IMG/VR virus record: IMGVR_UViG_2778261452_000001
Direction: 5' to 3' (one strand)
Origin: a virus
Taxonomy: Duplodnaviria > Heunggongvirae > Uroviricota > Caudoviricetes
DNA: 42,376 nt
In this document: positions 5,285 to 30,462 of the stretch, in pieces
How positions within the stretch are numbered: the first letter of the stretch is position 1
How the letters are laid out: every line of letters begins with the position of its first letter
The notes under the pieces: model-generated
Databases searched by the model: none
What the model was told of the DNA's origin: nothing
What the model saw: only the letters and a program-made list of their open reading frames with translations
Made by a program: the position numbers and the translations under genes

Positions 5285-5659
5285 ATGATGACACTAAAAC
5301 ATTTTCTTGACCGCCCATTATGGGCGGCAGCCGCAGGCTATGACTTTAATTATATGGATTGCATGTCTTATACTGCCAATGCATACGACCATTCGTTCAG
5401 CCTGCTGTTTAATTCTTTAAGAATATTGCCGGAAACAGAAGTTGGAGAGCTTCATTTATGGATATTGGGCTTTATCGCGGCTGTCGTTGGTATTGCTGTA
5501 TGGCCTTTTATTTTCTGGCTGGTGGCTGTTGTAGTGTGGTTTAAGTGCAAGACATACCGGAGAAAGTATTTCTTAGGTGATGGAATGACTGATATTGCCA
5601 AAATGAACATTGAAAAATGGACTAAGGAATGTGAAAAGAAATGGCGCAAAAAGAAATGA
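5285..5659 (+). CDS. predicted membrane protein
   Basis: 124-aa ORF from ATG 5285; long hydrophobic stretch LWILGFIAAVVGIAVWPFIFWLVAVVVWF; lysine-rich C-terminus. Confidence 0.5.
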   Translation: MMTLKHFLDRPLWAAAAGYDFNYMDCMSYTANAYDHSFSLLFNSLRILPETEVGELHLWILGFIAAVVGIAVWPFIFWLVAVVVWFKCKTYRRKYFLGDGMTDIAKMNIEKWTKECEKKWRKKK

Positions 5660-6573
5660 CCAGAATCACTGAAGAGCGTATATCAGAGACTATTTCCCGT
5701 ATCGAAATGTATGGTCACGGTGCTGGATATACGGCAGATGAAGTATTGGCACTTGCCCAAATGGCTTTGGCGGCTTGCAAAGATGATAAAAAAATGAAGC
5801 TTATCGACTTGTTAGTGAAGGAGCTGCCTAAGTGCGGCGGGTGGCCTGATGGAATGAGTTATTGTTACCTACCCAGTGTCAATTTAATGGCACCATGCGC
5901 GACTTTTGCTTTTGGCTCAGACCACAAAAAAGACACTTTCTTTGGGCGCAATTTTTGTTGTGAGATTGAGCTTCCAATTGGTGACCTTGATAGCGATGAA
6001 TACCAGTCAGTTGTCACTCGCGAACAATACGAATCAGCTCTCATAGCGTCGCAGAAAGTCGAGTTCAATGGTGATGAACTTGAAAGTAAGACTTACAGGT
6101 TGGATTTTGGGCAATGGCTGGAACAGCAACGCGGGAAAATCGATGTGGACTGTGGTTGTGTGTCCACTGAAACATTCATGCACTGGCTGCGGGTAGCTTA
6201 CGAGGCTGGCAACTATCCGGACATTCCGGATAGTTCGGTGCCAGCGAAAGGAAAGGGCGTCCCCGGTGAACGTATCCGAATTAAGCCGCATGTTTATCGC
6301 GAACTGGTTAACCGCCTCCACGATACAGCGGTCAAGTGTGCTGGCACCCAGCAATTACGAGAAAGAATTAGCCGTGTTTTGGGCGACGTTATTACGCCAG
6401 ATCATCATAAACAAGCCGAGAAAAGTGACCTAGAAAGGTGTCACCTTGAGGCGGCATTAAACATTAAGCCGGGGCATACGCTTGGCATTATCGATGCTCT
6501 GTTGGTTCATAAGATGGCCATGGCTTTATTGCCGTTGGTGGATGCTGGCGATACAAGCGAGGGTGAAGTATGA
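5641..6573 (+). CDS. hypothetical protein
   Basis: 310-aa ORF overlapping upstream gene end; no recognisable motif. Confidence 0.55.
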   Translation: MAQKEMTRITEERISETISRIEMYGHGAGYTADEVLALAQMALAACKDDKKMKLIDLLVKELPKCGGWPDGMSYCYLPSVNLMAPCATFAFGSDHKKDTFFGRNFCCEIELPIGDLDSDEYQSVVTREQYESALIASQKVEFNGDELESKTYRLDFGQWLEQQRGKIDVDCGCVSTETFMHWLRVAYEAGNYPDIPDSSVPAKGKGVPGERIRIKPHVYRELVNRLHDTAVKCAGTQQLRERISRVLGDVITPDHHKQAEKSDLERCHLEAALNIKPGHTLGIIDALLVHKMAMALLPLVDAGDTSEGEV

Positions 6574-6576
6574 GAG

Positions 6577-6927
6577 TTGCACATCAAACACCTTGAAAGA
6601 ATTATCGAAAACGGTGAACTCTTAAGAGATCAGATGAGACGCACGGCAGAAGTCAGAGAGGCGATAATCCGCAGTCAGGCTGGTAAATTAAAGCAATTGT
6701 CAGAGATTAACGCGCTATACAAGAACAGACGTAACCGGGCGGCGCGGCGGCTTCAGAAAGCACGTAATGAAATTAAATTGGTGGAGGCAAAACTGAAAAA
6801 ACAGATTCAGCGTTACGATCAGCAAGATGCTTTTTATGCCGCCATCAAGGCGGCTGCTAATGAAATAGGCATCTGGAAGTTGCTGGTGGAGAAAGCAAAG
6901 ACGAAGTTAAATGCCAACGAAAGCTGA
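6577..6927 (+). CDS. hypothetical coiled-coil protein
   Basis: 116-aa ORF beginning 4 nt after upstream stop (TTG start); K/R/E-rich, helical heptad-like. Confidence 0.4.
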   Translation: MHIKHLERIIENGELLRDQMRRTAEVREAIIRSQAGKLKQLSEINALYKNRRNRAARRLQKARNEIKLVEAKLKKQIQRYDQQDAFYAAIKAAANEIGIWKLLVEKAKTKLNANES

Positions 6928-6983
6928 ACTACAGGTACCCACCAGCACATACAGAAAATGATTGTTTCCACATCAAGGAGATT

Positions 6984-7006
6984 TTAATGTTTCACTGAAA
7001 CATTAA
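6984..7006. repeat. perfect 23-bp palindrome TTAATGTTTCA-C-TGAAACATTAA
   Basis: Read directly: 11-bp arms are exact reverse complements around one central base; overlaps stop codon of the minus-strand small ORF 7004..7140; AAGGAG lies 7 nt upstream of an ATG inside it. Confidence 0.5.
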
Positions 7007-7140
7007 GTAAGCCAGTGCATAATTCCATTTTTTACTGACCTTAAAAGCAAAATCAAAACGATGATGAGGATAATAGCCAGAATCTGGCTAATAACAGGCG
7101 CATCTAAAAATGCACTCAGGAACTGAAAAAAAGCAGTCAT
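7004..7140 (-). CDS. small hydrophobic protein (45 aa), hypothetical
   Basis: Minus-strand ATG at 7140 with AAGGA SD ~9 nt upstream; translates MTAFFQFLSAFLDAPVISQILAIILIIVLILLLRSVKNGIMHWLT; lies alone in the 650-bp gap; below ORF-track cutoff. Confidence 0.3.
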
Positions 7141-7301
7141 TAAGGTGGTTCCTTGTCAAATGTAAAGGAGCACTTGCTCACGTTGACGTAGAAACCCAAC
7201 CCTTATATAGTTGGATTCGGTGAAAGAAAGTCGTTAACGTGAGCTTACGGCACATGTTTTCGGAACAACATCAGGGAACGGCTAATTCCTTGATGCGGGT
7301 G

Positions 7302-7320
7302 GGGTCTGTAATGCAGACCC
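7302..7320 (+). other. stem-loop GGGTCTG-TAATG-CAGACCC in non-coding gap
   Basis: 7-bp perfect inverted repeat with 5-nt loop read directly; followed by T-containing sequence; possible terminator or small RNA element. Confidence 0.3.
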
Positions 7321-7577
7321 TATCTATTAACGTCATGATTGCATCTCAAATTTTCTCCTTATCTTCATTAATCAAAATTCATTTCATTTGTGAAACATCA
7401 CAATATTTAGAAAATGGCCCTCTTGCAAGTGCATAACTTTGTGGATAAATCAGGAAGAAAAAAGTTGATTCTGCGCACGGCAAGGCAGATAAGCTGTGCA
7501 CAAAAATCAATGGGAGAAGAAAAAAAATTAAAAGTTACTTTGCTGGTTAAATAATAGTCGTTACTCAATTATTCTGG

Positions 7578-7841
7578 ATGGGATTTGATATGTACGATTG
7601 GAATATTGCAGCTAAAAGTCAGGAAGAACGGGATAAGGTTAACGTTGATCTGGCTGCCAGCGGTGTGGCGTACAAAGAGCGATTGAACATACCTGTCATA
7701 GCTGAACAGGTAGCCCGCGAGCAACCAGAGAATCTGCGCACCTATTTCATGGAACGGCTACGGCACTACCGGCAGTTAAGCCTCCAGTTGCCAAAAGGGA
7801 GCGATCCGGCATATCAGAAAGATGATGCCGTAAAGAAATAG
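7578..7841 (+). CDS. hot: Hot, homologue of DNA polymerase III theta subunit (HolE)
   Basis: 87-aa product; [36 protein letters not shown] aligns with recalled E. coli theta ([37 protein letters not shown]); position matches P1 hot. Confidence 0.8.
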
Positions 7842-7847
7842 CGGTAG

Positions 7848-8420
7848 TTAACCGTTTTGAACTTCTCGTATCTTGGCAATGACAGCTTCATGCTGGGCTT
7901 GGATAGCGGCTTTTTCGTTTTCAAGTCGGGCAATAGACATCTCTAATTCTTTGCTGTACCAGGCGAGTTGGGCCAGGTTCATCCGGTTGTGGTCGAGAGT
8001 TGGAGACACTTCGACGCGCTCCCTTTCTTCCTGCTTTAATGAGAAGAGATTCATCTCATCCCTTGAGGAAAATTCAGCAACAATTTCTTGTTGATGATCC
8101 GGTCGCTGCGGCATCCTCGCCAGTATAAATGGCGGTTCTTTTGAAAACATGAATGTCGGCTGTGACCGTGTTTTCACCCATCTAGCCTGCTGTCTTTCGG
8201 CAAGTTCACAGGCTTCATCATAGTTATTTGCCAAACCAAGCACGGATGGACGGTCCCACGCGCCACCATTCAGACAATAAACAACAATTTTCCCGTCATG
8301 TTCTGTAACCCCATAGGGATGGTCCCACCAGGCGTCCAGCTGAGCTTTAGAGCGTTTCTCGTTAGGAGTGCAGTCAAAATTTTTGGGCAATACAGGATCG
8401 AGAGGAATGCGATTAGGCAT
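7848..8420 (-). CDS. lxr: LexA-regulated protein candidate (P1 lxr position)
   Basis: 190-aa minus-strand ORF, ATG at 8420 with AAGGA SD; divergent from humD across a LexA box; symbol by synteny only. Confidence 0.5.
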   Translation of the reverse strand: MPNRIPLDPVLPKNFDCTPNEKRSKAQLDAWWDHPYGVTEHDGKIVVYCLNGGAWDRPSVLGLANNYDEACELAERQQARWVKTRSQPTFMFSKEPPFILARMPQRPDHQQEIVAEFSSRDEMNLFSLKQEERERVEVSPTLDHNRMNLAQLAWYSKELEMSIARLENEKAAIQAQHEAVIAKIREVQNG

Positions 8421-19441: not shown

Positions 19442-19467
19442 TGAGTCCTTTGAAAACAAAGGACTCA
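19442..19467 (+). promoter_or_regulatory. perfect 11-bp inverted repeat TGAGTCCTTTG-AAAA-CAAAGGACTCA containing the only SD-like AGGA before the GNAT start
   Basis: Read directly; 3' arm ends 7 nt before ATG 19475; AGGA at 19460-19463 lies inside the stem. Confidence 0.55.
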
Positions 19468-30449: not shown

Positions 30450-30462
30450 CCACCAAAAATAA

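Follow-up and report, generated by a model that had tools for sequence, protein, structure and literature searches.

What lies between pmgV and hot in phage P1, at positions 6928-7577 of the window (the whole stretch of DNA that was analysed, 42,376 nt, a 100% match to P1)? P1 is among the most studied phages and is a standard genetic tool. A sequence-only reading had described the interval as the only large gene-free stretch, holding an exact palindrome, a short hydrophobic minus-strand ORF and a hairpin, and had interpreted it either as a small toxin gene with regulatory RNA (type I-like) or as a binding site for a regulator. The stretch is not the only one of its kind, since 15094-16246 likewise has no ORF of at least 90 aa, nor is it gene-free, since the P1 GenBank records AF234172 and NC_005856 annotate three ORFs within it:

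7110-7223, plus strand: upfM
7239-7436, plus strand: upfN
7414-7554, plus strand: upfO

That reading had overlooked these ORFs, together with a conserved block and an nrdA-like promoter that probably drives the minus-strand ORF. The P1 records also annotate several predicted promoters, a DnaA-box segment and the late promoter LPhot in the interval. A literature search outside the 2004 P1 genome paper found no RNAs mapped in the interval and no description of the minus-strand ORF.

Judging from sequence comparison and structure prediction, we consider it an even bet that the pmgV-hot "gap" is an unrecognised minus-strand cassette of a type I toxin-antitoxin-like, hok/sok-like kind. By the searches described below, such a cassette would lack homology to known toxin or antitoxin families and would be confined to P1-like plasmids. 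The outline of the earlier type I interpretation thus stands, in the form of a surviving hydrophobic ORF, a conserved leader and an opposite-strand promoter; the roles it gave to the palindrome and the hairpin do not.

The ORF and its ribosome binding site are as follows.

7003-7140, minus strand: 45-codon ORF for a predicted small membrane peptide, MTAFFQFLSAFLDAPVISQILAIILIIVLILLLRSVKNGIMHWLT; RefSeq WP_000123562.1, 'hypothetical protein', absent from the P1 GenBank records
7150-7154, minus strand: Shine-Dalgarno (SD) sequence AAGGA of this ORF, 9 nt 5′ of its ATG

The length of 45 aa and the ORF's own SD had been read correctly, and its stop codon (7003-7005) does fall inside the palindrome at 6984-7006; the left edge, stop included, is 7003 rather than 7004. 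This is the only ORF of the interval that survives divergence, and the only one that PGAP calls there, leaving upfM, upfN and upfO uncalled. It is intact, free of indels and of equal length in all three lineages, with start, stop, SD and hydrophobic helix kept; the SD of the diverged lineage (~77% DNA identity) is GAGGA at a spacing of 8 nt. The frame has taken 31 substitutions and no indels, whereas the surrounding non-coding DNA has 5-6 indels.

The peptide reaches a Kyte-Doolittle 19-residue maximum of 3.08 in P1, against 2.59 in its diverged counterpart. An AlphaFold2 model places helices at residues 2-12 and 15-44 (pLDDT 88), and the C-terminus, RSVKNGIMHWLT, is basic/aromatic. Type I toxins generally have fewer than 70 aa, a transmembrane helix and a polar, charged, aromatic or basic C-terminus (PMC2887945, PMC8309996); the P1 peptide and its diverged counterpart each have fewer than 70 aa, a predicted transmembrane helix and a polar/charged/aromatic C-terminal cluster. 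The coding signal in the DNA is weak: NG86 omega is 0.45, an intact frame turned up by chance in 13% of simulations, substitutions are spread 11/8/12 over the codon positions, and amino-acid identity between lineages is not above the random-substitution expectation.

Profile searches of the peptide against Pfam and NCBIfam (hmmscan, E up to 10) returned transmembrane noise only (best E 0.33), with no match to the Hok/Gef family (Pfam HOK_GEF) or to NCBIfam toxin models, and Pfam, NCBIfam, PHROGs and PADLOC gave no match to known enterobacterial type I toxins (e.g. Ldr, TisB, Ibs). An Ldr/Fst-like N-terminal motif seen by eye, MT..AF..D.APVI, is unsupported by any Pfam or NCBIfam profile. Two further candidates were rejected: a DnaA-box-like TTATGCACT inside the ORF (7022-7014) is not conserved, and sequestration of the ORF's SD would use pairing partners that vary by lineage, the site having about average accessibility.

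Upstream of the ORF on the same strand is a promoter region shared with the host.

7400-7427, minus strand: nrdA-like sigma-70 promoter, leftward; -35 TTGCAA at 7427-7422, 17-nt spacer, -10 TATTGT at 7405-7400
7428-7524, minus strand: captured E. coli nrdA upstream regulatory region, with DnaA boxes TTATCCACA at 7448-7440 and TTATGCACT at 7436-7428

The predicted transcription start is ~7391-7396. Record M95666 annotates an 'nrdA-like promoter' on the minus strand, and both it and AF234172 annotate a DnaA box. Over the 115 bp of 7410-7524, the sequence is 82.6% identical to the DNA preceding nrdA on the E. coli chromosome, and the promoter hexamers align position for position with E. coli nrdA TTGCAA-17-TATCTT; with two DnaA boxes, the -35 TTGCAA, the 17-nt spacing and homology to nrdA upstream DNA, the segment belongs by sequence with nrdA promoters. 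The DnaA boxes are invariant, and no lineage departs from the -35; the diverged lineage has TACTGT as its -10, and conservation of the core 7414-7443 stays at 90-100% across the lineages. The P1 segment shares with the E. coli nrdAB promoter region both DnaA boxes, the -35 and the spacing of the -10, but the similarity ends at the -10; what would be transcribed in P1 bears no relation to the nrdA leader, and there is no nrd gene after it. In P7-type elements the right part is near-identical to E. coli nrdA upstream DNA, a resemblance that suggests exchange with the host. Of an NrdR-box-like sequence, only half is recognisable by eye in the P1 segment.

Between this promoter and the ORF lies the conserved block.

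7177-7362, strand not assigned: conserved structured block of ~190 bp adjoining the ORF; leader of the predicted minus-strand mRNA and/or antisense RNA gene
7302-7320, 7269-7295 and 7194-7220: hairpins of the block, the last enclosed by a long stem, 7233-7245/7174-7186
7271-7360, minus strand: leader translation signals, with SD AAGGAG at 7360-7355, a 3-codon mini-ORF at 7344-7333 and an overlapping 21-codon leader ORF at 7336-7271

Identity between P1 and the diverged lineage is 90-100% in 7177-7362 and 55-75% in the flanks. The hairpin previously described is exact (GGGTCTG 7302-7308, loop TAATG, CAGACCC 7314-7320), but it is a part of this block rather than a separate element. It has one compensatory pair (7305/7317); hairpin 7269-7295 has three changes, all in the loop, and 9 of its 10 pairs are unchanged. 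In the minus-strand fold, substitutions are depleted at paired positions (odds ratio 0.32, p=0.0046), stem changes preserve the pair in 7 of 11 cases, and the fold of the predicted 418-nt mRNA has a z-score of -3.4. The covariation is thin because the comparison comes down to effectively two independent lineages: each structure has a single compensatory pair, and the shuffle controls stand at 25/500 and 83/500. When E. coli genomes were searched by blastn with the conserved block, it turned up on P1-like plasmids only, and its confinement to them keeps covariation power low; part of its conservation could stem from phage mosaicism. The leader SD and both AUGs are conserved across lineages. The 21-codon frame is open in all of them and its peptide is not conserved (6/21 residues changed); the SD, mini-ORF and 21-codon ORF are putative translation signals.

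The opposite strand of the block has a promoter of its own.

7183-7211, plus strand: near-consensus sigma-70 promoter TTGACG-17-TATAGT, 'PupfN' in P1; proposed antisense RNA promoter
7218-7330, plus strand: candidate cis-antisense RNA of ~110 nt with three hairpins, GGGTCTG/CAGACCC last, then UAUCUAUU

The promoter matches 10 of 12 consensus positions, a score reached by three sites in the first 20 kb, this one included and both strands counted. Its hexamers are unchanged in 15/15 sequence variants, changes being confined to the spacer (7202, 7203); this conservation could be a by-product of the minus-strand stem that contains it. The candidate RNA has an MFE of -43.2 kcal/mol (z = -5.0 vs shuffles). 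Its terminal hairpin shows one U-A to C-G compensation and two G-U to A-U changes, and the U-rich tail after the GGGTCTG hairpin is found on the plus strand only; the U-tract of this "terminator" is imperfect, and a terminator scan made no call. The plus-strand fold shows no stem/loop substitution bias (p=0.39), and a substitution neutral for the minus strand disrupts one of its stems. Rfam cmscan gave no credible match, Sok included, either at permissive E-values in 6500-8000 or at gathering thresholds in the whole window, and the Rfam AgrB and OrzO-P models do not match the P1 locus. Trans-pairing of the 5′ tail of this RNA with codons 3-6 of the ORF was rejected as chance because it is broken in P7-type elements.

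The remaining elements would form the two ends of the minus-strand mRNA.

6984-7006, minus strand: palindrome TTAATGTTTCA-C-TGAAACATTAA, forming a 10-bp AU-rich stem-loop that overlaps the stop codon; proposed to protect the 3′ end of the mRNA
6955-6983, minus strand: 3′ tail, with anti-SD-like UCUCCUU at 6981-6975 and terminal UCAUUUU (fbi-like) at 6961-6955, which would pair with 7379-7385
7379-7385, minus strand: predicted 5′-terminal element GAAAUGA of the mRNA; proposed partner of 6955-6961 (tac-like)

The palindrome sits precisely where it had been reported, and as a stem-loop has -7.8 kcal/mol (z = -4.2). The diverged lineage reads TTAATATCTCAGCGCGACATTAA at this site and keeps 9 of the 10 stem pairs, in minus-strand RNA only, by way of one G-U wobble and one U-A to C-G compensation; the loop varies. 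Such changes fit an mRNA 3′ stem-loop better than an operator. The 5′-3′ helix (7385-7379/6961-6955) has 7 bp in the consensus fold of 7 variants, and positions 7379 and 6961 covary (A-U to G-C). In a post hoc test, column shuffles gave an equally long 5′-3′ helix in both lineages in 2.3% of cases, and one with a compensatory pair in 0.46%. The RNA ends implied by this predicted helix agree with those expected from the promoter and from the cassette boundary. No canonical intrinsic terminator was found for the predicted mRNA. Pairing of the tail with the SD is present in the consensus fold and is not significant (67% of shuffles); a 12-bp complementarity between 7287-7298 and 6968-6979 (-21.5 kcal/mol in P1 vs -8.9 in the diverged lineage) was rejected, about one such being expected by chance per 650 nt.

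What the analysis shows is the conservation pattern, the integrity of the ORF, the predicted RNA structures with their limited covariation and the identity of the nrdA-derived segment. Both transcripts, antisense control, toxicity and a biological role are inferred, in the following form. Positions ~6940-7530 would be a self-contained accessory cassette read on the minus strand. The host-copied nrdA promoter would start an mRNA of ~440 nt near 7392, whose first ~250 nt would fold as the strongly conserved multi-hairpin leader; the mRNA would encode the 45-residue single-pass membrane peptide (7140-7003) and end in the AU-rich stem-loop that overlaps the stop codon (the "palindrome"), with a short tail behind it. 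The end of this tail would pair with the mRNA's own 5′ end, and the fold-back would keep the full-length mRNA inert. The opposite-strand promoter in the leader (7183-7211) would yield the ~110-nt cis-antisense RNA, terminated at the GGGTCTG/CAGACCC hairpin and U-rich tail, which would bind the leader, including the 21-codon leader ORF, to block translation and/or direct cleavage. The peptide would be made only when the antisense RNA drops (e.g. once the plasmid prophage is lost) or on induction of the nrdA-type promoter, and its target would be the inner membrane.

The rival that survives best, and to which we allow a modest chance, keeps the gene and discards the toxin-antitoxin function: a genuine small membrane-protein gene with a structured nrdA-promoter leader, the peptide being a regulator, exclusion factor or membrane modulator and the plus-strand promoter inactive or irrelevant, conserved solely through its position in the stems of the leader. 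It agrees with the stem/loop bias, present on the minus-strand fold and absent for the plus-strand RNA, with a G-to-A change at 7243 that breaks a hairpin of the plus-strand RNA and leaves a U-G wobble on the minus strand, with the position of the plus-strand -35 within the long stem 7174-7186, and with the conservation of the ORF and its SD. It agrees less well with the three loop nucleotides of the -10 TATAGT (7206-7208), which are invariant whereas their loop neighbours 7202 and 7203 vary, with a post-hairpin U-rich tail specific to the plus strand, and with the G-U to A-U changes in the extended terminal stem, sensible on the plus strand only. Moreover, 40-50 aa single-helix peptides of comparable layout are, as a general statement, mostly toxic on over-expression (PMC8309996).

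It is unlikely that the block instead serves the plus strand, with TTGACG-17-TATAGT driving hot, or a trans-acting RNA, in the lysogen, the hairpins a leader or attenuator, and the 45-codon ORF an untranslated by-product. The late promoter is the sole other annotated hot promoter, the plus-strand promoter is strong and invariant, its hairpin and U-rich tail could attenuate, and the coding signal of the ORF is weak. But in P7-type elements, which have no hot downstream, both the block (98% identical) and the ORF are kept, a plus-strand transcript would meet the conserved nrdA-like promoter head-on, and the ORF, its SD, start and stop survive the 31 substitutions without the indels of the non-coding surroundings. 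The 5′-3′ helix, too, implies a minus-strand RNA spanning the ORF.

For the peptide, a word-indexed search gave 2 truncated matches and exhaustive HMMER of 1.8 billion proteins gave 4, in both cases P1-like variants only, and GTDB species genomes gave no homologue, so that none was found beyond P1-like plasmids in either collection; its 54 loci in IMG/VR all fall within the same three lineages. Homology between the lineages ends near 6940, where the left neighbour switches from pmgV to hsdM; the cassette persists across this switch, as it does without hot in P7-type elements. An analogous case comes from one IncFIB plasmid family, in which the slot is occupied by the P1-type cassette or by an unrelated second cassette, that of SSU5-like plasmids. 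The latter shares the type of promoter and has a hydrophobic ORF of 27 aa, and its RNA matches the dinQ antitoxin AgrB over the full length but below threshold; its DNA shows no significant homology to the P1 block.

A non-functional mosaic junction, made of a host nrdA promoter remnant and drifting DNA and seemingly conserved through recent recombination among plasmid lineages, is in our estimate improbable. Phage-plasmids are mosaic, the right part in P7-type elements has the near-identity to host DNA noted above, and the interval is dispensable in lytic growth. Yet change here is non-random (loops vs stems, compensatory pairs, an ORF free of indels), and 229 PLSDB plasmids, as well as 216 of 5,426 complete E. 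coli genomes, have kept the cassette, which occurs in three flank contexts.

We rate as very improbable the second of the earlier interpretations, in which a DNA-binding regulator has the palindrome as its operator and insulates or regulates the pmgT-V operon and hot from there. An 11-bp dyad without a mismatch is a statistical rarity in P1 (the 42-kb window has three perfect short-loop palindromes whose arms reach 11 bp or more, and 30 shuffles had none), this one overlaps the predicted promoters P1upfM and P2upfM, and a third TGAAACAT copy lies at 7391-7398. However, the perfect palindrome is limited to P1 proper: the commonest P1-type variant loses the symmetry by a 1-bp deletion at 6998 and the diverged lineage by 6 substitutions, the changes preserving RNA pairing on the minus strand only. 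Since the dyad is not conserved, the regulator-site alternative is unsupported. Neither the predicted upfM promoters nor the third TGAAACAT copy, rejected as an element in its own right, is conserved, and the diverged lineage does not have the element behind pmgV at all.

That upfM, upfN and upfO are real protein-coding genes, as annotated in AF234172 and NC_005856, is scarcely credible, and they look like spurious annotations: stop codons or frameshifts interrupt each of them in the diverged lineage, P7-type elements have upfN and upfO in a changed frame, family searches and PGAP returned nothing for any of the three, and upfN and upfO are non-essential by CRISPRi.

Returning to a type I-like cassette, its design would have much in common with hok/sok (mok) of plasmid R1, summarised in PMC9841398: an mRNA of ~400-440 nt with a long structured 5′ leader (in P1, predicted only), a leader ORF preceded by a strong SD of its own, a gene for a short antisense RNA (in P1, a candidate) embedded in the leader but read from the other strand, a small membrane peptide with a single helix, a terminal stem-loop past the ORF followed by a short tail, and predicted pairing of the tail end with the extreme 5′ end, as in tac/fbi. 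It differs in that the peptide is outside the Hok/Gef Pfam family and Rfam gives no Sok match; that mok overlaps the toxin ORF and is needed for toxin translation, whereas the 21-codon leader ORF of P1 ends ~130 nt before the peptide ATG; that the candidate antisense RNA has ~110 nt and three hairpins against ~64 nt for Sok; and that the P1 promoter is copied from host nrdA.

With tisB/istR-1 and dinQ/agrB, E. coli type I systems driven by stress promoters, the cassette would share a small hydrophobic peptide, an mRNA whose long, structured 5′ UTR is inert, a small RNA from the opposite strand that acts well upstream of the start codon, and a toxin promoter coupled to a DNA-metabolism signal. 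The P1 locus also adjoins LexA-controlled lxr and humD. Unlike in those systems, the P1 promoter has nrdA DnaA boxes and no LexA box, and the RNA would be cis-antisense rather than trans-complementary via a repeat, the direct repeat being absent from the cassette. There is no sequence or Rfam similarity; the weak AgrB match belongs to the second IncFIB cassette and not to that of P1.

The nrdA promoter reports DnaA status and dNTP or replication stress. A speculative extension, which we hold to be doubtful, is that P1-like and SSU5-like phage-plasmids captured the nrdA promoter to drive small non-homologous membrane toxins kept in check by antisense RNAs, as killers responding to replication stress or plasmid loss, unlike the SOS-triggered tisB and dinQ; the hok-like fold-back of P1 would then have arisen independently of hok.

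In P1 itself, the interval carries three annotated ORFs that fail comparison, whereas the reference records omit the sole conserved ORF. Should the cassette prove to be a type I module, P1 gains a second addiction or stress module besides phd/doc, which bears on the stability of P1-like plasmids, now spreading resistance genes in E. coli and Salmonella. If true, a class undetectable by homology would also gain a new family of toxin and RNA, and there would be a case of a mobile element re-using a host cell-cycle promoter.

Window positions 6800-7700 are 100% identical to AF234172, AF234173 and NC_005856, which identifies the source as bacteriophage P1 (P1 position = window position + 78,989). 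The interval between pmgV, which ends at 6927, and hot, which starts at 7578, had been taken as empty of genes in the sequence-only reading. The P1 records annotate there three small ORFs (upfM, upfN and upfO), predicted sigma-70 promoters (P2upfM, P1upfM and PupfN), an E. coli-like segment (94% identical) with two DnaA boxes and the late promoter LPhot. These records do not annotate the minus-strand 45-codon ORF. That ORF, the palindrome at 6984-7006 and the hairpin at 7302-7320 all lie where that reading placed them.

Features of the interval (window coordinates):
7003-7140, minus strand, 45-codon ORF including its stop
7154-7150, minus strand, its SD, AAGGA
7110-7223, plus strand, upfM, "unknown protein function"
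7239-7436, plus strand, upfN, "unknown protein function"
7414-7554, plus strand, upfO, "unknown protein function"
7409-7464, minus strand, "nrdA-like promoter" with DnaA box, as labelled in the older record M95666

To call this the only gene-free stretch was a slight overstatement, as 15094-16246 (~1.15 kb) likewise lacks ORFs of at least 90 aa. Converted with the P1 offset, the latter runs across the point where the linear P1 record ends and begins; the window therefore has a circularly permuted order with respect to the reference.

The strongest signal of the locus is not the ORF; it is a conserved block (7177-7362) with 90-100% identity between lineages, against 55-75% in its flanks. Inside it lies a plus-strand promoter, TTGACG-17-TATAGT (a 10/12 match, hexamers invariant), one of three sites as good in 20 kb. 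The candidate plus-strand RNA (7218-7330) has three predicted hairpins (-43.2 kcal/mol, z = -5.0), ending in a hairpin followed by UAUCUAUU. The 7302-7320 hairpin shows a single, compensatory change (T to C at 7305, A to G at 7317); another hairpin, at 7269-7295, has three loop changes and 9 of 10 pairs unchanged. The minus strand has a 12-bp stem (7233-7245 with 7174-7186) that encloses a further hairpin; in the minus-strand fold substitutions are depleted at paired positions (odds ratio 0.32, p=0.0046) and the pair is kept in 7 of 11 stem changes. No stem/loop bias is seen in the plus-strand fold (p=0.39), formal covariation in the block is weak, the lineages being effectively two, and neither strand matches Rfam.

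Positions 7410-7524 match the upstream region of E. coli nrdA at 82.6% identity and hold DnaA boxes TTATCCACA and TTATGCACT and a -35 element, TTGCAA, followed at 17-nt spacing by TATTGT (TATCTT, at the same spacing, in E. coli). This promoter points leftward, facing the 45-codon ORF; the P1 sequence that it would transcribe shows no relation to nrdA. The predicted transcript, from ~7392, would have a ~250-nt leader including the entire conserved block. Over 7410-7546 the P7-type copy (loci L003 and L007) is much nearer the E. coli chromosome (L009) than P1's copy is and reaches further (to GTTAAAAATAAC), which suggests that DNA was exchanged with the host repeatedly or captured independently. 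The left boundary of the cassette (6940-6960) and the junction of nrdA-derived DNA and leader (7396-7416) share an imperfect direct repeat (15 of 21 nt, with GAAAATG at its end), which could reflect how the cassette was assembled or be due to chance.

The ATG, the TAA, the length and the SD (AAGGA becoming GAGGA) of the 45-codon frame persist across lineages through 31 substitutions and zero indels, and the peptide is still a hydrophobic helix whose tail is basic/aromatic. Evidence for coding is no more than moderate (omega 0.45): chance alone leaves the frame intact in 13% of simulations, and retention of the hydrophobic core sits at their 14% tail. The peptide has no family match in Pfam, NCBIfam, PHROGs or PADLOC. 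Within the ORF, a second near-perfect palindrome (7071-7093, TAATAGCCAGA-A-TCTGGCTAATA) is predicted to form an mRNA hairpin, part of which (GCCAG/TTGGC) the diverged lineage keeps. A rival reading, a gene for a non-toxic small membrane protein free of antisense control, we think rather unlikely.

The locus is present in 229 PLSDB plasmids and, among 5,426 complete E. coli genomes, in 216; P1-like plasmids are essentially its only carriers. Its copies form a P1-type, a P7-type (~92-96% identical) and a diverged lineage (~77% identical), the homology of the last to P1 beginning near 6940 in all three loci examined, with hsdM (a type I restriction gene) as left neighbour in two. No relatives beyond these three lineages turned up in exhaustive protein searches or when species genomes and viral contigs were scanned. 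A plus-strand leader or promoter serving hot is improbable, a reading weakened by the P7-type, which retains the cassette without hot. Mosaic junk seems still less probable.

Only three perfect short-loop palindromes of the window, the one at 6984-7006 among them, have arms of 11 bp or longer (none in 30 shuffles), and the sequence-only reading had offered this one as an operator. Six substitutions destroy the dyad in the diverged lineage, and the commonest P1-type variant loses it through a 1-bp deletion (an A of the right arm, at 6998, absent in 20 of 62 fetched loci), so that a 'perfect' dyad, as in reference P1, is the minority state. The minus-strand RNA meanwhile keeps 9 of 10 pairs (one now a G-U wobble, one compensated from U-A to C-G) around a variable loop. 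An mRNA 3' stem-loop over the stop codon thus fits and an operator does not; we think the operator reading very improbable. Other perfect short-loop palindromes with 9-11 bp arms lie at 6211-6235, within a 310-aa ORF (5641-6573; pmgT by the P1 offset), at 19442-19467, and at 34041-34064 and 30461-30482, which resemble GC-rich terminator stems.

The upf ORFs, annotated in P1, gain stops or frameshifts in related plasmids, where PGAP calls none of them and does call the 45-codon ORF (WP_000123562.1, hypothetical protein); they are probably annotation artefacts, and hardly credible as genes.

In the consensus fold of the full-length mRNA (seven variants), GAAAUGA (7385-7379), just past the predicted start, pairs with UCAUUUU (6961-6955), near the left cassette boundary, with covariation between 7379 and 6961 (A-U to G-C). 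In a test made post hoc, column shuffles gave a helix of this kind, kept in both lineages, 2.3% of the time, and 0.46% of the time when it also had to carry a compensatory pair. With about even confidence, we read the cassette as type I toxin-antitoxin-like, on the hok/sok plan, outside known toxin and RNA families and under an nrdA promoter captured from the host. The order would be a leader ORF with a strong SD, an antisense gene in the leader, a small membrane peptide and a terminal stem-loop, whose tail would fold back onto the 5' end of the mRNA; this predicted layout matches the hok/sok design summarized in PMC9841398. Steps past sequence conservation and predicted structure are ones we infer, the literature searched having yielded no transcript, translation or toxicity results for the interval. 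Lytic growth does not require the interval, as expected of an accessory module.

IncFIB SSU5-like plasmids carry, in a slot beside metG-apbC-humD, one of two cassettes: the P1-type cassette in its diverged form, or one unrelated to it that is found in 93 plasmids.

Features of the unrelated cassette (CP088541.1, L010 coordinates):
1966-2505, cassette in the equivalent slot, adjoining humD
2165 and 2339, 18-nt direct repeat
2397-2414, bidirectional terminator
within the cassette, 27-aa hydrophobic ORF MVNLLFKIVPPMFAIIKAIIEYVNQRP with a strong terminator

Homology to the P1 cassette was not found at the DNA level. The predicted plus-strand RNA of the unrelated cassette (2340-2421) aligns full-length, below threshold, with Rfam AgrB, the dinQ antitoxin (27.6 bits; gathering score 40). 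This cassette has the look of a dinQ/agrB-like type I locus that lacks annotation. Its promoter is also nrdA-type (TTGCAT-17-TATCTT), and only by analogy does this cassette support the nrdA-type promoter as a driver of small-peptide/antisense modules.
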